Origin: an uncultured Gemmatimonadota bacterium
Lineage (GTDB): Bacteria > Gemmatimonadota > Gemmatimonadetes > Palauibacterales > Palauibacteraceae
NCBI GenBank assembly: GCA_964465015.1
Contig: CAYXHP010000072.1
Location: 5,355 to 69,354 of the forward strand
Length of the DNA: 64,000 nt
Direction of reading: 5' to 3'
Shown here: positions 1,593 to 61,329 of the stretch, piece by piece
Position numbering within the stretch: position 1 is the stretch's first letter
How the letters are laid out: each line of letters opens with the position of its first letter
The notes under the pieces: generated by a model
What the model saw: only the letters and a program-made list of their open reading frames with translations
Database searches by the model: none
Told to the model about the DNA's origin: nothing
Position numbers and translations under genes: made by a program

Positions 1593-1720
1593 ACGGCGAG
1601 GCCGTTCCCTGCCGCCGCGCCGGGGCTATCTTTCACGCGCGCCGCGCTCGGCGGGTCGATGGCACGGATGCGCCCGGATACCCGGCCCTGCTCCTCGTCG
1701 AGAAAGGTCCGAAGGGAGCC

Positions 1721-2266
1721 ATGTCGATCTTCACGAATGCCGCCGCGAGCACCGCGGAAGAGACCGATGCCTACATCGCCGCCATCCTGGACCTCCTGGG
1801 AGACCGCGACCCGCTGGAGGTGCTGGCCGAAACGCCCGCCGCGCTGCGCCGCCTGGTGGCCTCGGTCCCGGCCGCGGCTCTCCTGGTGCCCGAAGCCCGG
1901 GGCAAGTGGTCGATCCGCCACGTGCTCCGGCACCTGGCCGACTCCGAGATCGTGTGGGGATGGCGCCTGCGGGTGGTGCTGGCCCAGAACCGACCGTCTC
2001 TCACCGGCTGGGACCAGGACGCCTGGGCGGATCGGCTCCACTACGAGGAGGCGGACGCCGCCGAGGCCCTGGAGGAGTTCGAGACGCTCCGCCGGGGCCA
2101 CCTCCGCCTCCTCGGCGCCATGGCGCCCGAAGACCTGGAGCGGATCGGGCTCCACGCAGAGCGTGGCGAGGAGAGCGTGGGGCGCATGCTCCACCTGTAC
2201 GCCGGGCACGACCTGGTGCACCTTCGGCAGGGCGACAGGATCCGCGCGGCGGTGAACGTGGCGTAG
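1721..2266 (+). CDS. DinB/YfiT-like metal-dependent hydrolase (DinB_2 family)
   Basis: The real protein starts at the ATG at 1721 (MSIFTNAAAS...) inside the longer GC-artefact ORF 497..2266. It has a four-helix DinB-like signature with conserved His residues (HVLRHLADSE, LYAGHDLVHLRQ). Confidence 0.7.
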   Translation: MSIFTNAAASTAEETDAYIAAILDLLGDRDPLEVLAETPAALRRLVASVPAAALLVPEARGKWSIRHVLRHLADSEIVWGWRLRVVLAQNRPSLTGWDQDAWADRLHYEEADAAEALEEFETLRRGHLRLLGAMAPEDLERIGLHAERGEESVGRMLHLYAGHDLVHLRQGDRIRAAVNVA

Positions 2267-2335
2267 CGGTCGTGAGACCGAGGAGGCGCAGGACCTTCGA
2301 CCAGGCGGACCACGAACCCGAGGCACGGAGAGTCC

Positions 2336-2806
2336 ATGCCCAAGCACACCGCGCTCGTGGAGTGGACCCGCGACGGCGCCGTCTTCACCGATAACCGTTA
2401 CAGCCGCGAGCACCGCTGGCGCTTCGACGGGGGCGTCGAGGTGCCGGCTTCGGCCTCGCCCCACGTGGTCCGGGCCCCGATGTCGGTGGCCGAGGCGGTC
2501 GACCCCGAGGAGGCGTTCGTCGCCAGCCTCGCCAGCTGCCACCTGCTGTGGTTCCTCTCGATCGCGGCGGCGAGAGGCTTCGTGGTGGACGGCTACCGGG
2601 ACGAGGCCGAGGGCGTCCTGGCCCAGGACGAGGAGGGAGAGATGTGGATGCGGACGGTCACCCTGCGCCCGGCGACCACTTTCTCGGGTCCGCGACTCCC
2701 GACCCAGGAGGAGCTCGAGGCGATGCACGACGAAGCGCACGAGCGCTGCTTCCTGGCGCGCTCGGTCCGGACGAAGGTGCTCTGCGAGGCGGTGGCCGAC
2801 CTATAG
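2336..2806 (+). CDS. OsmC/Ohr family peroxiredoxin-like protein
   Basis: 156 aa. It shows the OsmC-type pattern with two conserved Cys (SLASCHLLWF, HERCFLARS). Confidence 0.8.
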   Translation: MPKHTALVEWTRDGAVFTDNRYSREHRWRFDGGVEVPASASPHVVRAPMSVAEAVDPEEAFVASLASCHLLWFLSIAAARGFVVDGYRDEAEGVLAQDEEGEMWMRTVTLRPATTFSGPRLPTQEELEAMHDEAHERCFLARSVRTKVLCEAVADL

Positions 2807-2879
2807 CCTTCCCTGCCGGGAGAGGCGTCCCCCCGCGTGCCGACACGCAGGTCCTGAGGGCCGCTACCTCGAACCCGAC

Positions 2880-3091
2880 AGGCCCCCTCCTCGTAGTAAA
2901 TCCAGGATCATCGAACATATTTCGATTCTCGGCCGATCATTCGGTTCAATTTCGGTCTGAGAGCGCTTCATTTGGACGGCCCAATCCTTAAGAAAATCAG
3001 GTATGGAAGTTGCTATGCGAGTCGGCGGCAACTCCATGTGACGCTTGACTCTCATCCGAGTCGCGGCGTGCACAGAATCGGACGTAGATAC
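2880..3091 (+). promoter_or_regulatory. AT-rich upstream/promoter region of the curli locus (TTGACT -35-like hexamer at 3047-3052)
   Basis: GC drops sharply here (e.g. 'atatttcgattctcggccgatcattcggttcaatttcgg', 'aatccttaagaaaatcaggtatgg') in a roughly 70% GC background. The region sits directly upstream of csgE and contains TTGACT. Confidence 0.3.
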
Positions 3092-3661
3092 ATGGAGGGA
3101 GGCGCGGTGACCCATACCGTGGGAATCGGGTTCTCGGGCGCTATCCTTTTATTTTCGGCCTCTCTCCTCGTGGCCCAGCAGCCATCCGACGCACCGCGAT
3201 CGGACACCGTGACGCGCGTGGCAGCCGATTCCGACGCGGTTCTGGGCGTAACCTCGCTTCCACGCGAGGAGATTCCCGGCTACGCCGCCACGGCACGCTT
3301 CTTGGGCTCGTTGCACCGGCGAGACAATTCGCGTGCCGAGCCCGCCACAACCCGGAACGAGCTCTCCCTCGACCTCGTCGTGGATGAGACGCTCACCCCC
3401 ATGGGACGAGACTTCTTCCAGGCGTTCTACACGGCCTGGAAGGCCCCCGAGGGAGCGCCTACCTACGCCATACGGATCGGCGAGCAGCCGACGCCCGGCC
3501 TGTCCACCCGGATCGTCCTCTACCTGAACAACGAGCGGCTCCTGCAGTTCCCCCTGGTGAAGACGAGCCACGATTTCATCGAGGAGGTGGCGGGTCAGGC
3601 CGTTCGGTACATGCAGCAGCAGCTCCGGCAGCGCCTGTCGCCCGACGTCGAAGGATCCTGA
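3092..3661 (+). CDS. csgE: curli assembly/secretion specificity factor CsgE homolog
   Basis: It aligns to E. coli CsgE. The segment LDLVVDETLTPMGRDFFQAFYTAWK matches [24 protein letters not shown], and the IRIGEQPTP...LLQFPL...DF block matches INERPSARW...FQTFLFPLKRDF. There is an N-terminal signal peptide. The start is ambiguous: ATG at 3092, GTG at 3068 or GTG at 3107. Confidence 0.8.
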   Translation: MEGGAVTHTVGIGFSGAILLFSASLLVAQQPSDAPRSDTVTRVAADSDAVLGVTSLPREEIPGYAATARFLGSLHRRDNSRAEPATTRNELSLDLVVDETLTPMGRDFFQAFYTAWKAPEGAPTYAIRIGEQPTPGLSTRIVLYLNNERLLQFPLVKTSHDFIEEVAGQAVRYMQQQLRQRLSPDVEGS

Positions 3662-3704
3662 CGCGGCACGCCTCGACCATCACCCCGTCTTCCGTGGAGG
3701 AACG

Positions 3705-4148
3705 GTGAGCCCCGAGCGATCGATTCCGACTCTCGTGTCCGTCGCTGTCGTCACGCTACTGATGGCACTCCCGACGTCGGCTCGCGCCCAGGACCTGGTG
3801 TTCCAACCCCAGGTCACCGGGTTCGGCGCCGCGCCGGCGACGGTTCAGGTGAACCTGCAGCTGGCCCAGGCGCAGCAGGCCCAGCCGGACTTCTCTTCGT
3901 TCAACGATCCGCTGCAGAACTTCCAGCAGGACCTCCAGCGCCAGATCCTGAGCGGCCTGGCACAGCAGATCATCCAGTCGCAGTTCGGCGGCTCGTTCGG
4001 CCAGACCAACATCGACCTGGCGCAGCGCAGCACGTTCAACCTGGGCGACTTCATCGTCGACATCATCCCGGGTACCGATGCGCTCCAGATCCGGGTGGCC
4101 AACACCATCACGGGCAACTCGACCACCATATCCGTTCCGAAGTTCTGA
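3705..4148 (+). CDS. csgF: curli assembly protein CsgF homolog
   Basis: It has a signal peptide. The segment VFQPQVTGFGAAP...LQLAQAQQAQ...FQQDLQRQILSGL...GDFIVDIIPGTDALQIRVANTITGNSTTISVPKF parallels E. coli CsgF (FQFRNPNFGGNP...NSAQAQN...FTQAIQSQILGGL...NDYIVDI...LQLNVTDRKTGQTSTIQV...F). Confidence 0.85.
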   Translation: MSPERSIPTLVSVAVVTLLMALPTSARAQDLVFQPQVTGFGAAPATVQVNLQLAQAQQAQPDFSSFNDPLQNFQQDLQRQILSGLAQQIIQSQFGGSFGQTNIDLAQRSTFNLGDFIVDIIPGTDALQIRVANTITGNSTTISVPKF

Positions 4149-4205
4149 GAGCCTCGTGAGCGGACACCGCGCGTCCAACACACGAAGCGATCAGGAGAGA
4201 CACGG

Positions 4206-5579
4206 ATGAGGCGAGCGATCGGCCTCGGCACGGCGCTCCTCCTCGGAGCGGCGGGGTGCACGAACTACATGGCTCCCCTGCACACCGCCCCGCCGCGCCC
4301 GAACGGGTCCACGCCGGTGACGCGGGAGCTCCGCGAGCTCCCGGCGCCCAAGGAGAAGGTGGTGGCGGCGGTGTACCGGTTCCGGGACGAGACGGGCCAG
4401 TACAAGCCCAGCGCGAACGCGACCAGCTTCTCGACGGCCGTCACGCAGGGGGCGACGTCGATCCTGATCGATGCGCTCCAGACCTCCGGCTGGTTCGTGC
4501 CGATCGAGCGGGAGGACCTCTCCAACCTCCTGAACGAACGCCAGATCATCCAGCAGATCCGGCAGCAGTACGAGGGCGCGGCCAAAGACCAGCACCAGCT
4601 CCCGCCCCTCCTGTTCGCCGGCGTGATGCTCGAGGGCGGCATCATCGGCTACAACACGAACACGGTGACCGGCGGCGAGGCCGCCCGCTACTTCGGGGCG
4701 GGAGGCTCGGCCGTCTTCCACCAGGACCAGGTCACCGTCTACCTCCGGGCCGTTTCCACGCAGACGGGGCGCGTGCTGGAGAACGTCCACGCGACCAAGA
4801 CCATCCTCTCCCAGGAGGTCGAGGCGGGGATCTTCCGCTTCGTCGAGGCCAACCGGCTGCTCCAGTCCGACATCGGCTACAGCTACAACGAGCCCACCAC
4901 CGTCGCGGTCCGCGAGGCGATCGAGGAATCCGTACGCGCGCTGGTCGTGGAAGGGATCAAGGATGGCCTGTGGAGTCTCGCCGACTCCGCCGACTCGCGG
5001 AGCCCCGCGATCCTGGCCTACGAGCGTGACAAGAACCGGGCGCAGCGGACCGACGTGTTCGATCTGTTCCGGGGAGCGAGCCGCACGGGCTTCTCGCTCG
5101 GCCTGTGGGCGGGCGGTCAGAAGCTGGAGGGGAATTACCAGAACTCGCTCATCCGTCCGAGCGGAGGCCTCACGATCCGGCACTCCGTCTCGCCGAACGT
5201 CACGTTCGGCCTCGATGCCTCGGCCTGGCAGATCGCGGCCCGCAACGGCTTCCAGAGCACCGGCGCCTCGTTCGGGGGGAGCGCCCTCTACTACTTCCTG
5301 CCCGACGGCACGGCCACGCCTTACGTGCAGGTCGGCGCCGGGGCGCTAAAGGGCGACCTCATCTCGAGCGCCGGATCCGAGGGCCCGCTTCGCTGGCGGC
5401 CCTACATCTCGGCCGCCCTCGGAGTCGAGTACATGGTGCGTCCGGGAGCGGCGTTCGACCTGAAGCTCGAGAACCAGTACGCGGCCGAGGAAGGCATCGA
5501 CAACGTGGACGAGGGGGGGCTCAACGACTCCCTCTGGCGCCTCTCGGCCGGCTTCATCTTCTACTTGTCGCACTTCTGA
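4206..5579 (+). CDS. csgG: curli secretion channel lipoprotein CsgG with an extra C-terminal ~190-aa beta-barrel-like domain
   Basis: It has the lipobox LLGAAGC. Residues ~40-260 align along their length with E. coli CsgG (VAAVYRFRDETGQYKP, NLLNERQIIQQ, GGIIGYNTNTVTGGEAARYFGAG, TKTILSQEVEAGIFRF, SYNEPTTVAVREAIE). Residues ~265-457 are an additional domain with alternating hydrophobic beta-strand patterns and a C-terminal ...GFIFYLSHF (terminal Phe), like an OMP barrel. Confidence 0.9.
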   Translation: MRRAIGLGTALLLGAAGCTNYMAPLHTAPPRPNGSTPVTRELRELPAPKEKVVAAVYRFRDETGQYKPSANATSFSTAVTQGATSILIDALQTSGWFVPIEREDLSNLLNERQIIQQIRQQYEGAAKDQHQLPPLLFAGVMLEGGIIGYNTNTVTGGEAARYFGAGGSAVFHQDQVTVYLRAVSTQTGRVLENVHATKTILSQEVEAGIFRFVEANRLLQSDIGYSYNEPTTVAVREAIEESVRALVVEGIKDGLWSLADSADSRSPAILAYERDKNRAQRTDVFDLFRGASRTGFSLGLWAGGQKLEGNYQNSLIRPSGGLTIRHSVSPNVTFGLDASAWQIAARNGFQSTGASFGGSALYYFLPDGTATPYVQVGAGALKGDLISSAGSEGPLRWRPYISAALGVEYMVRPGAAFDLKLENQYAAEEGIDNVDEGGLNDSLWRLSAGFIFYLSHF

Positions 5580-5787
5580 CGTTCGTGTGGGGTGGTGGGG
5601 ACGTCCGTTCCAGCAACCGCAATCACCCGGGAGGACAACGGAGCTGAACTGACGAGCGACCGCGAGGTTCCGACCGGTGAGCCGGTCGGCGTGGGAGGAA
5701 CGCCGGGTTCCCGCGACGGCAAATAGGACGGCGCAGCCAGACGAGCGAGACGCAGTACCAGCGTTCACTCAGAGCGGAGAGAACAGC

Positions 5788-6741
5788 ATGCGTAAGCTCC
5801 AAGCACTCTTACTGGCCGGCGTCGTCGGACTGTTCCTGACGGCTGTCCCGGCGTATGGGCAGAGCAATACGGCCCACACGACCCAGACCGGGGACAACCT
5901 GAGCGCCGAGACGCACCAGCCCGGCGCCAGCAACCTGGCGAACATCGTGCAGGCCAACGACAACACGGGGCCGGAGGTGGCCTTCATTCGCCAGGCAGGG
6001 AACCACAACCAGGCCTTCATCCAGCAGAGCCAGACCGGTGGCGGCGGGATCACGCCTCCGCTGGAAGCGAGCATTCGGCAGTCCGGCGACTACAACGTCG
6101 CCCATCAGTCCGAGACCGCTCCCAGTTCGAATGCCGAGCAGATCCAGGAGGCGGTTCAGTCGGGCAACCACAACCGCTCCACGCAGACCATCGAGCACGG
6201 CTACACGATCCACCAGACCGTGCATCAGTCCGGTGACAACAACGTGGCGCGGCAGACCATCGGCGCAGACGGAAACGGACATATCAACGCCGACATCGTC
6301 CAGAGCGGAAACGGCAACACAGCCACGCAGGATCAGGCGGGCCTGAACGACAACGCGAGCATCACTCAGCCGGGCAACAACAACGTCGCGCACCAGCACC
6401 AGACCGGTCCGGCGTTCAGCCACGTGAATACGGCCGAGATCCGGCAGTCGGGGAATTCCAACACGGCGGTTCAGAACCAGACCATGGTCTCCGCCGCAGC
6501 CCCGCCGCACTACAACTACGCCACGGCTCACCAGTCGGGAAGCTCTAACCACGCCACTCAGAACCAGAGCGGGTTCGATCTGAACGCCACGATCCTCCAG
6601 TCCGGCAACGGCAACGTGGCGACGCAGAGCCAGATGTCCGGGTCTCTCCTAATGTCGACGATCACCCAGTCCAGCAACAACAACGTCGCGCACACAACGC
6701 AGACGGGCACCAGCGACGTCGCGACGGTCACGCAGGGCTGA
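5788..6741 (+). CDS. csgA: curlin-repeat major subunit (CsgA-like), paralog 1
   Basis: The signal peptide MRKLQALLLAGVVGLFLTAVPAYGQ is followed by many imperfect curlin repeats of the type Q-x-G-x-x-N-x-A-x3-Q (e.g. IRQSGDYNVAHQ, VHQSGDNNVARQ, IVQSGNGNTATQ, ITQPGNNNVAHQ, ILQSGNGNVATQ, ITQSSNNNVAHTTQ). An RBS GGAGAG lies upstream. Confidence 0.85.
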   Translation: MRKLQALLLAGVVGLFLTAVPAYGQSNTAHTTQTGDNLSAETHQPGASNLANIVQANDNTGPEVAFIRQAGNHNQAFIQQSQTGGGGITPPLEASIRQSGDYNVAHQSETAPSSNAEQIQEAVQSGNHNRSTQTIEHGYTIHQTVHQSGDNNVARQTIGADGNGHINADIVQSGNGNTATQDQAGLNDNASITQPGNNNVAHQHQTGPAFSHVNTAEIRQSGNSNTAVQNQTMVSAAAPPHYNYATAHQSGSSNHATQNQSGFDLNATILQSGNGNVATQSQMSGSLLMSTITQSSNNNVAHTTQTGTSDVATVTQG

Positions 6742-6769
6742 TCAGAACTCGGGAGCTGGAGGCAACAGA

Positions 6770-7570
6770 ATGCGTAAGCTCCAGGCACTCTTGCTGGCCG
6801 GCGTCGTCGGACTCTTCCTGACGGCCGTGCCGACCTTCGCGCAGAGCAATACGGCGACTGTCAACCAAACCGGTGACAATCTCACCGCCGAGGCCCACCA
6901 GCCGGGCGCCAGCAACCTGGCCAATATCATGCAGGCCAACGATAACACGGGCCCGGTAACAGCCTTCATCAGGCAGGCCGGAAGTCACAACAAAGCCTTC
7001 ATCGATCAGAGCCAGACGGGTGGCGGAGGCATCACCCCTCCGCTCGAGGCCTCGATCAGGCAGCCCGGAAACTACAACGTCGCCCATCAGTTTGAGAACG
7101 CCCCAGGCTACAATCAGGGGCAGACCCAGGAGGCCGTGCAGTCGGGCGACCACAATACCTCTAACCAGACGATCGATCATGGCTGGGGGATTCACCAGTC
7201 CGTGAACCAGTCGGGAAACGACAACGTGGCTCGTCAAACCGTAGATGGTAGTGGGGTCGGGAATCTGGTCTCGAGTATCATCCAGTCCGGAAATGGGAAC
7301 ACCGCCACGCAGGACCAGACTGGCCTGAATCAGACCGAGAACGCGAAGCAGTCGGGCAACAACAACGTCGCGCATCAGTATCAGACAGGGCCAGGCGCAT
7401 ACAGCCACCTTAACCTGGAGACCATTCTCCAGTCGGGGAATGCCAACCTCGCGGCTCAGCACCAGATGGGTCTGGACCTGACCTCGACGGTCACCCAGTC
7501 CAGCAACGGCAACGTCGCGCACACGACACAGACGGGAACCAACGACGTCGCGACGGTCACGCAGGGGTGA
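6770..7570 (+). CDS. csgA: curlin-repeat major subunit (CsgA-like), paralog 2 (tandem duplicate)
   Basis: The signal peptide and the C-terminal ...TNDVATVTQG are nearly identical to paralog 1, also at the DNA level. It has the same curlin repeat structure. An RBS GGAGG lies 8 nt upstream of the ATG. Confidence 0.85.
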   Translation: MRKLQALLLAGVVGLFLTAVPTFAQSNTATVNQTGDNLTAEAHQPGASNLANIMQANDNTGPVTAFIRQAGSHNKAFIDQSQTGGGGITPPLEASIRQPGNYNVAHQFENAPGYNQGQTQEAVQSGDHNTSNQTIDHGWGIHQSVNQSGNDNVARQTVDGSGVGNLVSSIIQSGNGNTATQDQTGLNQTENAKQSGNNNVAHQYQTGPGAYSHLNLETILQSGNANLAAQHQMGLDLTSTVTQSSNGNVAHTTQTGTNDVATVTQG

Positions 7571-7619
7571 TGAGAAACCCGCAGCTCGCCCATGGTAGGA
7601 GCGACTGCCACAGCGGATA

Positions 7620-7643
7620 CCGGGGGGGCGCACGCCCCCCCGG
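7620..7643 (+). terminator. strong GC hairpin (CCGGGGGGG-CGCACG-CCCCCCCGG) between csgA paralog 2 and the third curlin gene; putative terminator/attenuator with no U-tract
   Basis: A perfect 9-bp G/C stem with a 6-nt loop lies about 50 nt after the csgA2 stop. Confidence 0.35.
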
Positions 7644-7715
7644 CCGCTGCGTTGAAGGCGGAAGGGACATGCGCGCGATCGGAACGGAGTTCACGACTCC
7701 TCGAGGAGTGGACCG

Positions 7716-8372
7716 ATGAGACGGTTCCTACAGGTGACCCGCCCGACGAGGCTGGCTTGCGCGGCCATGGTGGCCGTCGCGGTTGGCCCGGGGCTCTCCG
7801 GCGCGGCGGCGCAGCAGACCGGCGGCGCGTACATCACGCAGGCGACCTCGCCGGAGACCGTGCTGCCCAGGTCGACGAGCCCCGACCAGCAGGCGACCGC
7901 CCTGTGGCCCCAGCTCGCCTGCTTGGGACTCGGAGCCGCCGGAGCCTCTTGCGATCTCCGCAGCTCGGCGGGTCCGCCGGCGGGCGGCTTCCGGAACTTC
8001 GTCGCCCTCGTGCAGGCCGGCAGCGGCAACTTCATCGCCACGGTCCAGGCGGGCGGCACGGGCAACCAGATCCAGGCGAGCCAGACCGGGGACAACAACA
8101 CGCTGTACGCGGATCAGCTGGGAAGCGACAACCTCCTGGGCGTGCGCCTGGTCGGCAACGACAACACGCTGCACTCGTCGCAACACGGCAGCGGCAACCA
8201 GTACCTGTTCAGCTTCGAAGGCAACTCCCTGAACCACAACCTCCTGCAGGAGGGAGACAACCTGCGGGCGGTGCAGATCGGCGTGGGGACGCTGCCGTTC
8301 AGCATCGAGCAGCTCGGTCACGACATGGAGATCCGGATCGTGCACGACCCCCTGAGCGGATGGCCGCGATGA
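7716..8372 (+). CDS. curlin-repeat protein with a distinct Cys-containing N-terminal domain (CsgB-like nucleator candidate)
   Basis: An RBS GAGGAG precedes the ATG. After the signal peptide there is a ~90-aa N-domain with cysteines (LACLGLGAAGASCDL). This is followed by curlin-type repeats: ALVQAGSGNFIATVQAGGTGNQIQASQTGDNNTLYADQLGSDNLLGVRLVGNDNTLHSSQHGSGNQYLFSFEGNS. Confidence 0.75.
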   Translation: MRRFLQVTRPTRLACAAMVAVAVGPGLSGAAAQQTGGAYITQATSPETVLPRSTSPDQQATALWPQLACLGLGAAGASCDLRSSAGPPAGGFRNFVALVQAGSGNFIATVQAGGTGNQIQASQTGDNNTLYADQLGSDNLLGVRLVGNDNTLHSSQHGSGNQYLFSFEGNSLNHNLLQEGDNLRAVQIGVGTLPFSIEQLGHDMEIRIVHDPLSGWPR

Positions 8373-9040
8373 GAGCTGACACAGTCAGACACGGACGCAG
8401 GAACAAGGCGGGCCTCCGGGGCCCCGCCGGCCTCCTGCCGCTGGCCCTCGCCCTCGCGACGCTGGCCGGCTGCAAGACCCCGACGACCGGACCCACGGCG
8501 ACGGGTGCCATCCAGGGTCGGGTCCTCAACGACAGCACCGGGTCGCCCGTGGCCGGAGCCTCGATCACCACGAATCCGCCCACCAGCGCGCCGGTCTCCG
8601 GCGCGGACGGGACGTTTGAGCTTCCGGACCTGGACACCGGGGAGTATTCCATCTCGGCCAGGAAGTCCGGTTTCTCGTCCGCCACCGTCTCGGTCTCGGT
8701 CGAGAAGGGAAAGACCACCGACGCCACCATCCTCCTCCCGCCCACCAGCTCGAAGTCGGACGTGCTTAACGTCGAGATCGATGATGTGCGCACCAGCACG
8801 CCAGCGCCCGATTCAGTGTTCACGGAGGTCGAGTACGTCGCCAAGAACGTGTCGCAGGACACGCTGGCCGAGTACAACATCGTCTTCAACATCTTCCTGC
8901 CGGGAAAAGTGCTGAAGCAGGAAGAGACGGGAGAGGATCTCCATCCAGACCAGCAGCACGTGGGTGATTTCCGGAAGTATGTCGGAGACACGACACCGGA
9001 CTCGGTCCGCGTCGGCGACATCTACACCCGGCCGACCTGA
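8360..9040 (+). CDS. lipoprotein with a carboxypeptidase-regulatory-like (CarbopepD_reg / transthyretin-like beta-sandwich) domain, coupled to the curli locus
   Basis: In-frame ATGs at 8360 and 8369 overlap the stop (8370-8372) of the preceding curlin gene. It has a lipobox LATLAGC. The segment GAIQGRVLNDSTGSPVAGASITT...GADGTFELPDLDTGEYSISARKSGF...VSVEKGKTTDATILL matches the CarbopepD_reg pattern. Confidence 0.65.
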   Translation: MAAMRADTVRHGRRNKAGLRGPAGLLPLALALATLAGCKTPTTGPTATGAIQGRVLNDSTGSPVAGASITTNPPTSAPVSGADGTFELPDLDTGEYSISARKSGFSSATVSVSVEKGKTTDATILLPPTSSKSDVLNVEIDDVRTSTPAPDSVFTEVEYVAKNVSQDTLAEYNIVFNIFLPGKVLKQEETGEDLHPDQQHVGDFRKYVGDTTPDSVRVGDIYTRPT

Positions 9041-9217
9041 CGCCGCTCCACCCGTCGCCTCGCCCGTCGCTCACCGGCAGGCCTTGACGCCGATCCTCCC
9101 TCCCGGACATTTCAGGAGTACTTTCTACGGCCCCACCCGGACCGCGACCCACCAGGCTCGACCAGAGCCGTGGTCGGTCGGTGTCCCGGGAATCCGCGAC
9201 AGCCTCGAGGGAGGCGC

Positions 9218-10544: not shown

Positions 10545-11093
10545 GTGGCCGGAGCCGGAGCGTCGGAGAGCGGGATCGTCGGGCTCGGCGACCTCCTCCG
10601 CCTGGTCGGCCGCTGGGAGGGCGTCGGGCACGCCGCGTACCCGACCATCGAACCCGCCGACTACCGGGAAGAGCTGGTCTTTCGTCACGACGGCACGGGT
10701 CCGCTGCTGCGCTATTTCCAGAGGGCGTGGCGCGCCTCCCCCGGGAACCGCGACGGAGAGCCCCTGTTCCAGGAGTGCGGCTTTCTCATCGACCGGGAGG
10801 ACGGGACGTTCGAGATGGTGAGCGCCCAGTGGAGCGGCCGAACCGAGGTGCTCCGCGGACCGGCCGCGCGGGACCATGATGGGCGCCTGTCCCTGGACCT
10901 GGCCAGCGTGGCCATTGGAAACGACGATCGCGTCCTCCGCTCCGCTCGACGTCTCGAGCTGGGCACCGACACGCTCGTCTATCGGCTCCGCATGAGCACG
11001 CGCTCGCATCCCGCGGGGGGCATCCACCTGAGGGCGAGGCTGCGGAGGGTGGATCCGGAGGGCCGACCCGCCGACCCGGAGGAACCGGCCTAG
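10545..11093 (+). CDS. DUF1794/nitrobindin-like (FABP-like beta-barrel) protein
   Basis: It contains LVGRWEGVGHAAYPT...YREELVF..DG..LLRYFQRAW...EMVSAQWSGRTEVLRG...LVYRLRM. The start (GTG at ~10545) is uncertain. Confidence 0.5.
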   Translation: MAGAGASESGIVGLGDLLRLVGRWEGVGHAAYPTIEPADYREELVFRHDGTGPLLRYFQRAWRASPGNRDGEPLFQECGFLIDREDGTFEMVSAQWSGRTEVLRGPAARDHDGRLSLDLASVAIGNDDRVLRSARRLELGTDTLVYRLRMSTRSHPAGGIHLRARLRRVDPEGRPADPEEPA

Positions 11094-12115
11094 GGGCTCA
11101 CCGGGCACGTGGCCGGCGCGGCTCCGGTCGTGTCACCCGCTTCCGGGGCCTCACGGGATCCCACCGTCGCGAGGAGCTCGGCCGGCACCTTCGCGCGGTC
11201 TCCCATCACGACCCCGATCGTCGCGTAGCCCCGCTCCTCCAGCCCCTCCCGTCCCCTCCGGGAGAGCAGGAAGGCGATGAAGGCGCGGCCGACCGCCGGG
11301 TCTCCCGCCCCGCCGGGCACCGTGGCGGCGTAGACGATGGCGCCGCCGCGGTGCACGGTGCCGTCGGGGGCCCGGTAGGTCATGGTGCGGTAGACGCTGT
11401 CGCACGCCGGGTCGCCGAAACTGATGGCCGGTGGGAGCCGGAGGACCGAGAGCCCCTGCGCCCGCGCCTCGGACAGGTAGAACACGCCCGCGTCGAGCTC
11501 GCCGGTCTGGACCCTCGCCGCGAGCTGGTCCTCGGGGAAGACCTGGCGCGGCCCTCCGATGAGACGGTCCGCCAGCCCGGGAGTCCCGTAGTGGCGCTCG
11601 GCCAGCCGGAGCATCCACACGGTCCGGTAGCCCTTGGGATCCAGGGCCGGATCCGTGCGCCCGAACCGAAAGCCGGGCCTCTCCGCGACCTTCCACCAGG
11701 GGACGAGTCCCCGGGCGGCGCTGTCGAGAGCCGCCGAGAAGCGGCCGCCCGGCCGGTAGCCCAGCGACAGCTCGCCCGTGGCGAACGCGATCGCCCAGCC
11801 GGGGTCGGCGCGCCCGAGGCCTCCGAGCGTTCCGGGGTCGGCTGTCACGTAGACGTCGGCCTCGAGGAGGCCATCGCGGATCTGGTGTGCTCCCGCGGTG
11901 GAGCCGCGCGCCACGCCCCTGAAGCCACGGCCCGTGCTGTCCTGAAAGCCCGGCCCGAGGGTCTTCTCCATGGCCGCCGTGAGCGAGGCGGCGTACACGA
12001 CGTCGGCCGGGTCGTCGGCCCGGCCGGTGGGCCGGCAGCCGGCCGTCGTGGCCACGGCACCCAGGAGGAGGGCGCCGAGCACGACAGCGGGCGAGCGCGT
12101 CCGCGCAGCTCTCAC
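11090..12115 (-). CDS. periplasmic solute-binding protein (molybdate/tungstate ModA-like) of an ABC transporter; no permease/ATPase adjacent
   Basis: It has a lipoprotein-like signal (AVATTAGC) and an SBP-family fold. Its start overlaps the stop of the ModE-like regulator by 4 bp. Confidence 0.65.
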   Translation of the reverse strand: MRAARTRSPAVVLGALLLGAVATTAGCRPTGRADDPADVVYAASLTAAMEKTLGPGFQDSTGRGFRGVARGSTAGAHQIRDGLLEADVYVTADPGTLGGLGRADPGWAIAFATGELSLGYRPGGRFSAALDSAARGLVPWWKVAERPGFRFGRTDPALDPKGYRTVWMLRLAERHYGTPGLADRLIGGPRQVFPEDQLAARVQTGELDAGVFYLSEARAQGLSVLRLPPAISFGDPACDSVYRTMTYRAPDGTVHRGGAIVYAATVPGGAGDPAVGRAFIAFLLSRRGREGLEERGYATIGVVMGDRAKVPAELLATVGSREAPEAGDTTGAAPATCPVSP

Positions 12116-45392: not shown

Positions 45393-46622
45393 CTAGCGCA
45401 GGATCCCCGCCACCCCCGTCTCCGTGGGCATGCGCTCCGCGGGGAGCACGAGCGCGTTTCCGCCGTGCAGGATCACCACCTCGGCGAGCTCGTCCAGGAG
45501 CTCGGCCGCCTCCCCGGATGGATCGTCGCCGCCCTCCTTCTCGATCTCGATCGCGCCGGTCTCACGGTCCAGGCGGCCCCACACCCGTCGGTCACGCTCG
45601 GTGAGGAGCAGTCGGATACGGCCGGCCACGGCCAGGTGAGCCAGGTTGGCCAGGTCCAGCTCCCCCTTGCCGCGCCCGTAGGATCCCTCCCACAGGTCCA
45701 GGGCCCGGTCGATCTCGCGGTCCACCTGCGCCCGCGCGATCGGCCACGCCGCCTGGTGGACGCGCTCGGCGCTCCAATCGGCGACGGAGGCCTCGATCCC
45801 CTGCTCGGCCAGGTTGCGCAGCCGGCTCACGTCGCGGTACAGGGAGTGGTATTCCTTGACCGCGGCCAGGACCAGCGGTCCGATCTCTCCCTCGAGCATG
45901 TCCTGCAGTCCCTCGTCGACCGCCTTGAAGAACCGGCGGAGCTCGGGCTCGTCGTCGTCGGCGCCGACCCCGTGGCCGTGGAAGACCGGCATCACGCCAC
46001 CCCGACCGTGCGTGCCGTGCGTATCCCGGGTGTACTTGCGGCGGAGCACGATCTTCTGATCGCGTTCGAACTCGTAGCCCAGAGCTTCCATGAGGTTGCG
46101 CGGCACGCCCTGGAGGTCGATGGGGCTCGCTCCGGCCGCCGTCCCGGACCACAGGACGACCTTCTTCTGGCTCAGCCCGAGCACCCAGTACCGGTCGGGC
46201 GCCTGGAGGTACTCGAGCATCGGGCGGGTATGGAAGGTCGGCGCCACGACCACCAGGTCGGGGAGATCGGCCGGGAGCCGGTAGAGCCGCTGGACGGCGG
46301 GTGAGGCGAATACGGCCAGCCCTCCCGACTGGTACCGCCAGAACTCCTCCTCGCGCGTCAGCGGCTCGAGCTCCGCGGTGAGGGACTCCCCGGCGCCGTT
46401 GGAGCCCTCGGCCGTGCCGAGCAGATCCCGGGCCCGGTCCAGCGCCGCCCGGTACCGGAGGCGATTGGTCTCCGCCTCGCTGCTCGAGCGCTCGGTAGGA
46501 ACGTACATGGAGATGGCGGGACCTTCCCGCTCCTCCAGCAGGGTGCGCAGGTCATCTCGTCCAAAGTAGTCCACGAAAGCCCCCTCTCGTGAGGTCGGCT
46601 CGGTATCAGGCAGCGCGTTCAT
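45393..46622 (-). CDS. hypothetical protein (possibly bacterial eRF1/Pelota-like 'baeRF' fold; unconfirmed)
   Basis: 409 aa of soluble composition. There is no clear motif. The C-terminal ELLDELAEVVILHGGNALVLP resembles the C-domain of eRF1/Pelota-like proteins. Confidence 0.55.
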   Translation of the reverse strand: MNALPDTEPTSREGAFVDYFGRDDLRTLLEEREGPAISMYVPTERSSSEAETNRLRYRAALDRARDLLGTAEGSNGAGESLTAELEPLTREEEFWRYQSGGLAVFASPAVQRLYRLPADLPDLVVVAPTFHTRPMLEYLQAPDRYWVLGLSQKKVVLWSGTAAGASPIDLQGVPRNLMEALGYEFERDQKIVLRRKYTRDTHGTHGRGGVMPVFHGHGVGADDDEPELRRFFKAVDEGLQDMLEGEIGPLVLAAVKEYHSLYRDVSRLRNLAEQGIEASVADWSAERVHQAAWPIARAQVDREIDRALDLWEGSYGRGKGELDLANLAHLAVAGRIRLLLTERDRRVWGRLDRETGAIEIEKEGGDDPSGEAAELLDELAEVVILHGGNALVLPAERMPTETGVAGILR

Positions 46623-57903: not shown

Positions 57904-57938
57904 TTGCATTTCTATGCATCCATCTGAATAATCATGCT
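57904..57938 (+). promoter_or_regulatory. argG promoter with two tandem ARG-box-like palindromes (TGCATTTCTATGCA and TGAATAATCATGC), centres ~20 bp apart
   Basis: An AT-rich island 'ttgcatttctatgcatccatctgaataatcatgc' lies 65 bp upstream of argG. There is a possible TTGCAT(-35)/N17/AATAAT(-10). argR is encoded at the end of the same operon. Confidence 0.45.
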
Positions 57939-58002
57939 TCGTTCGCTCGGGGGCCGGCGTGCCACCGCTCCCCGGGTCCGGCACATGCACGAGGAGCACG
58001 AG

Positions 58003-59310
<1,308 letters not shown>

Positions 59311-59353
59311 GCCCGCCATCCTCCCCTTCCGGCCCGGAGGAGGGAGCGAAGCG

Positions 59354-60865
59354 GTGAGCCGATCCGACCAGAGCGGGAGCGACGATCGTCCGGCGGAGGA
59401 CGCGGGCGCCCATTCCGTCTGGGGCGGACGGTACGTGGAGCCCCTCGACCCCGCCATCCACGCCTTCACGAACTCCCTCCCCTTCGACCGCCGCCTGGTG
59501 CGGCACGACCTGGCGGCCAGCCTGGCCCACGTCCGCATGCTGCTCGAGACGGGCATCCTGGAGCCGGAGGACGCTGGCGCCATCCTGGACGGTCTATCGG
59601 GGCTGCTGGCCGACATCGAGGCGGGAGCGCTCGCGGTCGAGGGGCCGGACGAGGACATCCACGGCTGGATCGAGCGCCGCCTGGTCGAGCGGATCGGCCA
59701 GCCGGGTCGCCGCGTGCACACGGCCCGCAGCCGGAACGACCAGACGGGCGCGGCCCTGCGGCTGTGGGTGCGCGACGCGGCCGCGCGGCTCGTGGCGGCG
59801 GCGCTCGATCTGGCGTCCGCCTGGACGGACACGGCCGCCGGCCACGTCGAGACGTGGATGCCGGGCTACACCCACCTGCAGCGCGCGCAGCCGGTCACTC
59901 TCGCCCACCACCTCCTGGCCCACGTGTTCGCGCTCCTGGCCGACGCGGAACGCCTGAGGCGCGTGCACGCCGCCGCCGGTCTCTCGCCGCTCGGGGCCGG
60001 GGCGCTGGCCGGCACGTCGCACCCGGTCGACCCGGAGCGGACCGCCCGGCTGCTCGGCCTCGGGGGCGTCTACCCGAACACGCAGCTGGCCGTGGCCGAC
60101 CGCGACTACGTGGTCGAGGCCGCCTTCGCCGCCGCCCTCCTCATGACGCACCTGTCGCGCTGGGCCGAGGAGGTCGTGCTGTGGACTTCGGCCGAGTTCG
60201 GCTTCGCCGCCCTGTCGGACCGCGTCGCCCAGGGGAGCAGCCTCATGCCGCAGAAGAAGAACCCGGAGGCGGCCGAGGTCATTCGCGGAAAGAGCGGGCG
60301 GGCGATCGGCGACCTCGTCGCCCTGCTCACCGCGCTCAAGGGTCTCCCCCTCGCCTACGACAGTGACCTGCAGGAAGACAAGGAGGCGCTGTTCGACGCC
60401 GTCGACACGGCGCTCGCCTCACTGCTCGGGGCGCGGGCGCTCTCCGCCGGACTGGAGTATCGGCCCGGGCGCATGCGGGATGCGCTCCGCGGCGGGTTCC
60501 TGACCGCCACGGACCTGGCCGACCACCTGGTGCGGCGCGGCGTCCCGTTCCGGACCGCGCACGCCCATGCGGGCGCGGCCGTGCGGGAGGCCGAGTCCCG
60601 GGGCGTGGAGCTGGCCGAGCTGCCGGGGGATGTCCTCCTGCGCGCCTGTCCCGAGATCGGGCCGGAGCCTCCCGACCTGTCGGCGGAAGCGGCGGCCCGG
60701 GCTCGACGGTCCCCGGGCGGGCCGGCCCCGGAGCGGACGGCCGAGCAGGTCGATGAAGCCAGGCGCCGCGTGGCGGAGCTTCGGGGCTGGGTGAACGGCC
60801 TGGAGGAGCCCCCGATCCTGTGGGCCCACCGGACCGGCACCCTCCGGGATCCAGATCTCCCGTGA
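59354..60865 (+). CDS. argH: argininosuccinate lyase
   Basis: GTG start after GGAGGAGGGAG. The fumarase/ASL superfamily motif is GSSLMPQKKNPE. The ArgH-type N-terminus is SVWGGRY... Confidence 0.9.
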   Translation: MSRSDQSGSDDRPAEDAGAHSVWGGRYVEPLDPAIHAFTNSLPFDRRLVRHDLAASLAHVRMLLETGILEPEDAGAILDGLSGLLADIEAGALAVEGPDEDIHGWIERRLVERIGQPGRRVHTARSRNDQTGAALRLWVRDAAARLVAAALDLASAWTDTAAGHVETWMPGYTHLQRAQPVTLAHHLLAHVFALLADAERLRRVHAAAGLSPLGAGALAGTSHPVDPERTARLLGLGGVYPNTQLAVADRDYVVEAAFAAALLMTHLSRWAEEVVLWTSAEFGFAALSDRVAQGSSLMPQKKNPEAAEVIRGKSGRAIGDLVALLTALKGLPLAYDSDLQEDKEALFDAVDTALASLLGARALSAGLEYRPGRMRDALRGGFLTATDLADHLVRRGVPFRTAHAHAGAAVREAESRGVELAELPGDVLLRACPEIGPEPPDLSAEAAARARRSPGGPAPERTAEQVDEARRRVAELRGWVNGLEEPPILWAHRTGTLRDPDLP

Positions 60866-61329
60866 ACCGGCGCGAGCGGGAACGGCTCATCCGGGAGATC
60901 GTGGCCGACTCGCCCATCGGCACGCAGGAGGAGCTCGTCCGGGCCCTGGCGGCCCGCGGCATCGAGGTGACACAGGCCACCGTGTCCCGCGACATTCACC
61001 GGCTCGGACTCGTCAAGGTGCCCGATGCGGGCGGACGCTACCGCTACACGCTCCCCGAGACCTTCGAGGAGCACGCGGCACCGGACGCCTCGGAAGCTCT
61101 GCGGCGCGCGTTCGAGGAATTCGTGCTCGATGTCGATCCCGTGCGGGACATCGTCGTGGTGAACACCGAGATGGGGGCGGCCAACGCCGTGGCCGTGGCC
61201 CTGGACGAGGCCAGGATACCGGGCGTGGCGGCCACCCTGGCCGGCGACGACACGATCTTCGTCCTCACCCGCTGCGAGCTGGACCGGCGCCGCGTGCTGG
61301 TCGCGCTTCGGGACATGCTGGTGGGCTGA
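60862..61329 (+). CDS. argR: arginine repressor
   Basis: GTGA overlap with argH. The N-terminal winged helix is QEELVRALAARGIEVTQATVSRDIHRLGLVK. The C-terminal oligomerisation/arginine-binding segment is GDDTIFVL. Confidence 0.85.
   Translation: MNRRERERLIREIVADSPIGTQEELVRALAARGIEVTQATVSRDIHRLGLVKVPDAGGRYRYTLPETFEEHAAPDASEALRRAFEEFVLDVDPVRDIVVVNTEMGAANAVAVALDEARIPGVAATLAGDDTIFVLTRCELDRRRVLVALRDMLVG

Follow-up and report, generated by a model that had tools for sequence, protein, structure and literature searches.

A probable curli secretion locus with a barrel-fused CsgG and an accessory lipoprotein in a high-GC bacterial genome

Curli (type VIII secretion) gene clusters have been surveyed well beyond the enterobacteria. 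The divergent csgDEFG/csgBAC arrangement is confined to Enterobacteriales and Vibrionales, with single operons elsewhere, and curli were also reported in Bacteroidetes, where all genera are devoid of csgC and csgD apart from Spirosoma, in which csgD is present (Dueholm et al., 2012). The same survey lists co-linear clusters in its Table S1, such as that of Burkholderia sp. 383, where csgE, csgF and csgG are followed by the curlins (consecutive accessions). A 2025 screen of GTDB v226 (PMC12822426) placed CsgA/B+CsgEFG among the five commonest compositions, with complete csgBAC operons representing ~9% of clusters and a local maximum of repeat number at 9-14. CsgC or CsgH is present in 39,784 of 43,279 CsgA-containing genomes, leaving a minority without either (Sleutel et al., 2023). 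Here, we analysed a stretch of 64,000 nucleotides (nt) of contig CAYXHP010000072.1 (hereafter the window, meaning the whole stretch) that harbours a seven-gene locus at positions 3092-9040. We interpret it, with a probability of roughly 85%, as a functional curli locus of the type found in Bacteroidota and their relatives, in a genome of 71% guanine plus cytosine (GC) that probably belongs to the Gemmatimonadota.

An initial annotation of this DNA had considered the gene order and accessory set of the locus as not well described. This does not hold, as co-linear clusters without csgC and csgD already figure in Dueholm et al. (2012) and in the 2025 GTDB screen, and this layout, together with the absence of csgC, csgD and csgH, is the common state outside enterobacteria. 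The truly under-described features are two that the annotation had missed: a barrel fused to CsgG, and a conserved lipoprotein with a CarboxypepD_reg domain. The seven co-oriented genes themselves were recovered in the open reading frame (ORF) listing exactly as annotated in position and strand, and all frames are intact. They are given below with the barrel-encoding part of csgG (aa, amino acids; E, expectation value):

3092..3661, + strand: csgE, 189 aa, predicted periplasmic curli secretion adaptor (PF10627, E = 3.8e-15)
3705..4148, + strand: csgF, 147 aa, predicted surface-exposed assembly factor plugging into CsgG (PF10614, E = 4.4e-25)
4206..5579, + strand: csgG, 457 aa, lipoprotein channel with a C-terminal barrel (PF03783, E = 1.4e-63)
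5088..5564, + strand: C-terminal domain of CsgG (residues 295-453), an OmpA/NspA/OmpW-like eight-stranded outer-membrane barrel
5788..6741, + strand: curlin 1, 317 aa, ~12 repeats (Curlin_rpt, E = 5.8e-18, 65 bits)
6770..7570, + strand: curlin 2, 266 aa, ~10 repeats (Curlin_rpt, E = 6.7e-12, 45.6 bits)
7716..8372, + strand: degenerate curlin-like gene, 218 aa (Curlin_rpt, 20.2 bits against a cut-off of 20.7)
8369..9040, + strand: accessory lipoprotein gene, 223 aa (CarboxypepD_reg, E = 3e-15; lipobox LATLAGC)

From csgE to the lipoprotein gene, the intergenic gaps measure 43, 57, 208, 28, 145 and -4 nt, and a Shine-Dalgarno-like sequence precedes five of the seven genes. The homology of CsgE, CsgF and CsgG, proposed in the initial annotation, was borne out by hidden Markov model (HMM) profiles (Pfam cut-offs: PF10627, 25 bits; PF10614, 25.8 bits; Curlin_rpt, 20.7 bits) and, for the latter two proteins, by matches in the Protein Data Bank (PDB). 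The CsgE domain occupies residues 95-181 (56.5 bits), whereas CsgF matches its full-length profile (88.8 bits) as well as the CsgF chains of solved CsgG-CsgF complexes in PDB (E = 2e-6). Residues 16-273 of CsgG align with residues 14-269 of Escherichia coli CsgG in PDB (E = 2e-64), covering the whole E. coli protein with an identity that we estimate by eye at ~45%. In NCBIfam, the CsgE (E = 1.3e-5), CsgF, CsgG, CsgA and CsgB families were all matched, every score falling under the enterobacterial equivalog cut-off, as expected for distant homologues. Taken with the match of curlin 1 to the solved curlin 8C50 (E = 9.6e-15), these HMM and PDB results support the identification of a complete curli locus.

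The same NCBIfam search returned a match of CsgG to HfaB (E = 6.8e-13), as would be expected of a holdfast-anchor type system instead of curli. We rejected this candidate: its 48 bits compare with a cut-off of 300 bits and with 230 bits for the CsgG match, CsgE, CsgF and curlins are all present, and no HfaA-like or HfaD-like gene occurs among the flanking genes scanned. We consider its probability to be close to nil.

With respect to E. coli, CsgE carries an N-terminal extension of ~90 aa (window 3092-3370) ahead of the CsgE domain. Its start codon is called identically in a Logan copy of the locus (L011; related loci are designated by L numbers), and the length of CsgE in relatives, from 106 to ~190 aa, indicates that the extension is variable. 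Inspection of the translations revealed a signal peptide (hydrophobic N-terminus) in CsgE, CsgF, curlins 1 and 2 and the curlin-like protein, and a lipobox in CsgG (GAAGC) and in the accessory lipoprotein (LATLAGC).

CsgG, which the initial annotation had given as ~277 aa, is in fact 457 aa long and exceeds the E. coli protein by ~180 aa, the channel part (residues 1-273) being followed by an additional C-terminal domain. The match of this domain to OMP_b-brl is weak (E = 0.0024) yet spans the full profile, and an AlphaFold2 model built from a 50-sequence alignment folds residues 295-453 into eight long antiparallel strands, with a predicted local distance difference test (pLDDT) score of ~90. 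Among the 50 aligned homologues, the lipobox cysteine (Cys18) is invariant and the pattern W.L..G...Y of the last strand is conserved; the C-terminal residue is F or Y in 23 of them, as it is in the protein of the window (...FYLSHF). This last strand presumably resembles the signal recognised by the β-barrel assembly machinery (BAM), the BAM β-signal.

The best 120 CsgG homologues are all 433-486 aa long, some of them with a precomputed PF13505 match, and the same fused architecture also occurs in species-representative genomes of Balneolales, Solirubrum, Chryseosolibacter, Arundinibacter, Altibacter and other Flavobacteriaceae. An exhaustive search with the barrel domain alone retrieved 64 representatives at E <=0.001, many of them ~460 aa long and matched in their C-terminal part, although the barrel is too divergent for the family to be counted from a single-sequence query. 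Most likely, the fused barrel serves each CsgG subunit as an anchor or a targeting element in the outer membrane. Judged from the related loci by which we define it here, the long-CsgG locus type is widespread in Bacteroidota, Balneolales and high-GC relatives, and the locus of the window displays both of its features, namely a barrelled CsgG of ~460 aa and, inside the locus, a gene whose product carries CarboxypepD_reg as its N-terminal domain.

The initial annotation had also attributed canonical curlin repeats to three proteins. This was verified for curlins 1 and 2, which contain the full motif Q.G..N.A...Q seven and five times, respectively, and pass the Curlin_rpt cut-off; the third protein has no full motif and scores 0.5 bit under that cut-off. 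Shuffled sequences contain the full motif ~0.01 times or less on average, so that the repeats are not an artefact of composition. Minimal Q.G..N units number 10 in curlin 1 and eight in curlin 2, with a spacing of 22-29 residues. The two paralogues share 75% nucleotide identity, their signal peptides differ at two residues only, and curlin 1 has ~50 residues more than curlin 2. The closest relative, L018, whose CsgG is 83% identical to that of the window, has a single curlin of 266 aa (L018 3463-4263), which indicates that the tandem duplication in the window is recent. We also observed that the two paralogues (window 5788-7570) resemble each other more at their 5' and 3' ends than in the middle. 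Gene conversion could account for this pattern, as could selection acting on the signal peptide and on the last repeat.

These curlins bear directly on the possibility that a CsgG-type channel exports repeat-rich but non-amyloid surface adhesins, or proteins resembling those of a surface layer (S-layer), and not curli fibres. In NCBIfam, the accessory lipoprotein best matches part of an anammox S-layer glycoprotein family (E = 1.1e-13, with a score far under the cut-off), CsgG-family proteins serve other systems and Pfam CsgG matches many paralogues (Dueholm et al., 2012), and in Armatimonadetes a CsgG-like gene lies beside a PF13620 protein with no curlin reported. Nevertheless, full motifs at curlin spacing, Curlin_rpt scores above cut-off and the match to 8C50, along with the presence of both curli-specific partners, CsgE and CsgF, make adhesin export very improbable.

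The third, curlin-like protein has four minimal Q.G..N units, and its NCBIfam match is to CsgB (E = 1.5e-5). In an alignment of its five-member family, the Q, G and N columns are invariant and a non-repeat C-terminus (F.IEQ.G..MEIRI.H) is kept. The profile of this family retrieves 8C50 (E = 1.5e-33) and E. coli CsgA (E = 1.2e-4); the protein is therefore truly related to curlins, and no better nucleator candidate is present. By analogy with CsgB, it would probably act as the cell-bound nucleator, although CsgA and CsgB are distinguishable in Gammaproteobacteria only (Dueholm et al., 2012).

The last gene of the locus encodes a lipoprotein made of a lipobox, a transthyretin-like CarboxypepD_reg domain (PF13620) and an all-β C-terminal domain of ~90 aa, the latter modelled with low confidence from two sequences. 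Its start codon shares bases with the stop codon of the curlin-like gene in the sequence ATGA, suggesting translational coupling of the two genes. A word-indexed homologue search with the lipoprotein gave two matches, and the family was therefore gathered from the related loci. A homologue is present in 11 of the 11 loci with enough flanking sequence (L001, L002, L006-L010, L012, L014, L015 and L018). The homologues of the high-GC relatives (L012, L014, L015 and L018) are ~220 aa long and lie directly 3' of the curlin-like gene, even where the gene order is permuted, and the Balneolales homologue (L001, 223 aa) is similar. In Cytophagales and Flavobacteriaceae, the homologue is ~500 aa long and lies directly 3' of csgG in most loci; in L002 it is found after the curlin-like gene and not after csgG. 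These ~500-aa homologues (L002, L006, L008, L009 and L010) combine CarboxypepD_reg with an fn3-like domain, and those of L002 and L006 also contain PD40/TolB-like propeller repeats. The high-GC clade keeps only the first ~220 aa of the Bacteroidota form.

The lipoprotein probably acts in the envelope, as an assembly or a safeguard factor. By analogy, a safeguard role of the CsgC/CsgH kind would be an attractive possibility, because the lipoprotein, CsgC and CsgH are all small β-sandwich proteins. Neither the barrel-fused CsgG nor the transthyretin-like accessory protein is peculiar to the window: both are lineage-wide and visible in thousands of database entries. We found no paper on a CsgG barrel fusion in curli, nor on this lipoprotein in curli loci; subscription journals lay mostly outside the search, which makes this weak evidence.

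Concerning the usual safeguards and regulator, the annotated absence of CsgD and CsgC was reproduced: neither was detected by Pfam in the ten flanking genes within ~5 kb, and E. coli CsgC and CsgD queries gave no tblastn match across the 64 kb window. CsgH was likewise not among the Pfam results for the ten flanking genes, in which no search aimed at CsgH was made; every locus gene is otherwise assigned, and no spare ORF is left that could be csgH.

The gene set of the locus recurs in relatives, in the same order in L018, L012 and L013 and permuted in L014 and L015. Compared with L018, first and second codon positions are 0.71-0.91 identical and third positions 0.59-0.67 in the locus genes compared, and this far better conservation of the first two positions points to purifying selection acting on each of them. 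A decaying or silent remnant that has lost its function could be suspected from the lack of a recognisable regulator within ~5 kb, the lack of a sigma-70-like promoter and the degeneration of the third curlin. Against this stand the seven intact frames, five of them with a Shine-Dalgarno-like sequence, the purifying selection relative to L018 and the retention of the gene set across the high-GC clade, and a remnant therefore appears highly unlikely to us.

GC content is 71.4% over the window, 61-70% over the locus and 58% at 2801-3200, the last value confirming the lower-GC upstream region noted in the initial annotation. The difference in GC between locus and window, together with flanking genes that differ from those of L018, might suggest that the locus is a genomic island of recent acquisition and not a trait of the lineage. 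The lower overall GC of the locus is explained by the Q/N/T/S-rich composition of its proteins, and GC at third codon positions (GC3), 0.79-0.93 in locus genes, lies near the 0.92-0.94 of host genes and gives no sign of recent import. The nearest CsgG relatives are moreover all on contigs of ~70% GC, and Pfam found no mobile-element genes among the ten flanking genes. We accordingly rejected a recent island, which we regard as improbable, and the purifying selection and host-like GC3 together argue for an active, resident system.

Three non-coding elements were delineated within and ahead of the locus:

2807..3091, + strand: low-GC region 5' of csgE, presumed csgEFG promoter region
5666..5787, + strand: conserved, non-coding leader/promoter region 5' of curlin 1
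7611..7649, + strand: GC-rich stem-loop between curlin 2 and the curlin-like gene

The region 5' of csgE is not conserved even in L018, whose upstream neighbour differs. In contrast, the leader of curlin 1 shares 93.5% identity with L018 in a stretch of 93 nt (window about 5667-5759), against 59-67%, near saturation, at third codon positions of the flanking genes. It holds a perfect 8-4-8 palindrome, CCGACCGG-TGAG-CCGGTCGG, which is operator-like, and a 2-nt indel relative to L018 near the ATG of curlin 1 excludes that it is coding. Rfam gave no match at gathering threshold over the whole window and two chance microRNA matches only in a permissive search of 2780-9200, so the leader does not correspond to any known riboswitch, for instance a cyclic di-GMP element. 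It is likely a promoter/operator or a 5' leader. The stem-loop consists, from sequence and fold, of a G7/C7 core and an outer CAGCGG/CCGCTG stem, and is conserved in L018 and L012 with a consensus of 14 pairs, one of which shows a compensatory change. It is not followed by a run of T, and is thus not a classical intrinsic terminator; a terminator scan gave weak, mostly antisense matches only. We regard it as a putative attenuator, terminator or 3' stabiliser. The conserved leader and hairpin argue that the co-oriented genes do not form a single simple operon.

The ten flanking genes within ~5 kb are unrelated to curli according to Pfam:

Flank, one side: aspartyl-protease-like protein, DinB_2, OsmC
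Flank, other side: pyridoxal phosphate enzyme, glyoxalase, THAP4-like, ModA-like, ModE-like, NmrA-like and DUF2568 proteins

The gene at 228-1592, two genes 5' of the locus, encodes a protein of 454 aa that contains a retropepsin-like aspartyl protease domain (Asp_protease_2, E = 1.2e-14) and for which no link to curli was established. Farther away, the gene at 45393-46622 (- strand) encodes a 409-aa protein whose match to the NCBIfam AOC03_06830 family ribosome hibernation factor (E = 5e-36) reaches 125 bits against a cut-off of 330. Signalling genes lie near two of the related loci. In L014, a PAS histidine kinase and a sigma-54 activator are upstream (1634-5743) and a GGDEF-like gene is downstream (10835-11776) of the curli locus, and a PAS-GGDEF-EAL gene is found near that of L012 (15961-17431); no such genes are present within ~5 kb in the window.

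Judged from sequence, the host is probably, on weak evidence, a member of the Gemmatimonadota. The best named match of ArgG is to a Gemmatimonadota metagenome-assembled genome (MAG) (72% identity, 685 bits; the next named match scores 644 bits). The genes argG-argH-argR (window 57934-61326) are syntenic with this MAG (GCA_046757485.1), with protein identities of 76, 65 and 58% and the same GC. No match in the window was obtained (tblastn, E of 1e-5 or better) for argC-J-B-D, which lie ahead of argG in the MAG.

From these gene identities, folds, conservation and synteny we infer the following course of secretion. All seven products would leave the cytoplasm via Sec, since a signal peptide or a lipobox stands at the start of each. 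By homology with the E. coli system, the CsgG lipoprotein would form an oligomeric outer-membrane channel, which CsgE would cap or gate from the periplasm, handing over unfolded subunits, while CsgF would sit in its outer mouth. The two major curlins would be secreted unfolded and polymerise as β-solenoid amyloid fibres, nucleated at the cell surface by the degenerate curlin-like protein. The eight-stranded barrel carried by each CsgG subunit would serve in outer-membrane anchoring or targeting, and the transthyretin-like lipoprotein, presumably translationally coupled to the nucleator-like gene, would be an envelope helper. Expression would probably involve at least two units, csgEFG on the one hand and the curlin genes, preceded by a conserved leader of their own, on the other, with the conserved hairpin damping read-through into the nucleator and lipoprotein genes.

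A more far-reaching version, which we hold to be rather unlikely, is that of a structurally distinct type VIII secretion in this lineage and its relatives of the Bacteroidota type, with a ring of satellite barrels around the pore and the lipoprotein standing in for CsgC/CsgH. The barrel of each CsgG subunit would then be inserted by BAM, and the lipoprotein would prevent periplasmic curlins from turning amyloid, or link the nucleator to the machinery.

Several observations weigh against the interpretation of the locus as a functional curli system in a member of the Gemmatimonadota. Amyloid fibre formation is argued here only by analogy with the Pontibacter R15.5 curlin (8C50), which forms fibres in vitro (PMC10192328). 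The curlin-like protein lies 0.5 bit under the Curlin_rpt cut-off without a full canonical motif, and the CsgB-like role is guessed from where its gene lies and from the conservation of its family. The model of the CsgG monomer is poor (pLDDT <50) for the transmembrane hairpins, and thus places the barrel only tentatively with respect to the pore. A sigma-70 scan gave 0 sites, the fold of the leader is no stabler than that of shuffled sequence (z = -0.77), and similarity to the leader was found in L018 alone, with none in more distant loci. Finally, the phylum is deduced from one marker, ArgG (72%), and from argG-argH-argR synteny, and the named ArgG matches at 69-73% identity span several phyla.

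As one more curli locus in a catalogue of several thousand, albeit probably in a phylum unnamed in the curli surveys compared, the functional curli locus proposed here is not surprising in itself. A literature search for curli in Gemmatimonadota found nothing on point, and the locus is of use in annotation and in studying how Gemmatimonadota of soil or sediment form biofilm matrices in their ecology. It also adds to the comparative picture of a large, mostly uncultured set of bacteria with a barrelled CsgG and always a transthyretin-like accessory protein. If the barrel and the lipoprotein are mechanistically important, they would show how amyloid secretion can be anchored and kept safe without CsgC/CsgH, and would offer new parts for engineered curli materials and CsgG nanopores.

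In common with enterobacterial curli, the locus has homologous CsgE, CsgF and CsgG, subunits with curlin repeats and a putative division of labour between major subunit and nucleator. It departs from the divergent csgBAC/csgDEFG arrangement with csgD and csgC of E. coli and Salmonella, as all genes are on one strand and neither csgD nor csgC was found. It has two long major curlins, whereas enterobacteria have one CsgA with five repeats, and its candidate nucleator is encoded 3' of the major subunits instead of 5'. Moreover, its CsgG has an added barrel and the locus an added lipoprotein. Burkholderia sp. 383 shows the same succession of secretion genes, curlins and accessory gene (Dueholm et al., 2012, Table S1), but there the accessory gene is csgH, whereas that of the window codes for an unrelated transthyretin-like lipoprotein. 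In the Armatimonadetes cluster (Eloe-Fadrosh et al., 2016, PMC4737851), a CsgG-family gene is likewise linked to a PF13620 protein; that protein has four copies of the domain and was itself proposed to be an amyloid, and no curlin, CsgE or CsgF was reported. In the window, in contrast, the role of fibre subunit falls obviously to the curlins, and the protein with PF13620 is a small lipoprotein.

Within the CsgA/B+CsgEFG class of the GTDB screen (PMC12822426), the match is close: the window has exactly that csg set, and its 10-12 repeats fall within the 9-14 maximum. That screen employed csgA-H models only, does not mention a CsgG barrel or the lipoprotein, and does not name Gemmatimonadota in its text. 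A further close resemblance is to the Bacteroidota-type loci, for example those of Flavobacterium johnsoniae and Gillisia, which share the co-linear csgE-csgF-csgG, several multi-repeat curlins and the lack of csgC and csgD. Their CsgG is ~460 aa long, carries the same C-terminal barrel and is 36-46% identical over its full length, and a gene whose product starts with CarboxypepD_reg likewise lies beside csgG or the curlins. The solved curlin of Pontibacter korlensis R15.5 (PDB 8C50) is matched by the curlins of the window. Differences from this type reside in the host, with its 71% GC and probable affiliation to Gemmatimonadota, in the accessory protein of ~223 aa, devoid of the PD40/TolB-like propeller of ~500-aa Bacteroidota homologues, and in the position of the curlins, which lie 3' of csgG in the window and 5' of it in Flavobacterium and Gillisia.

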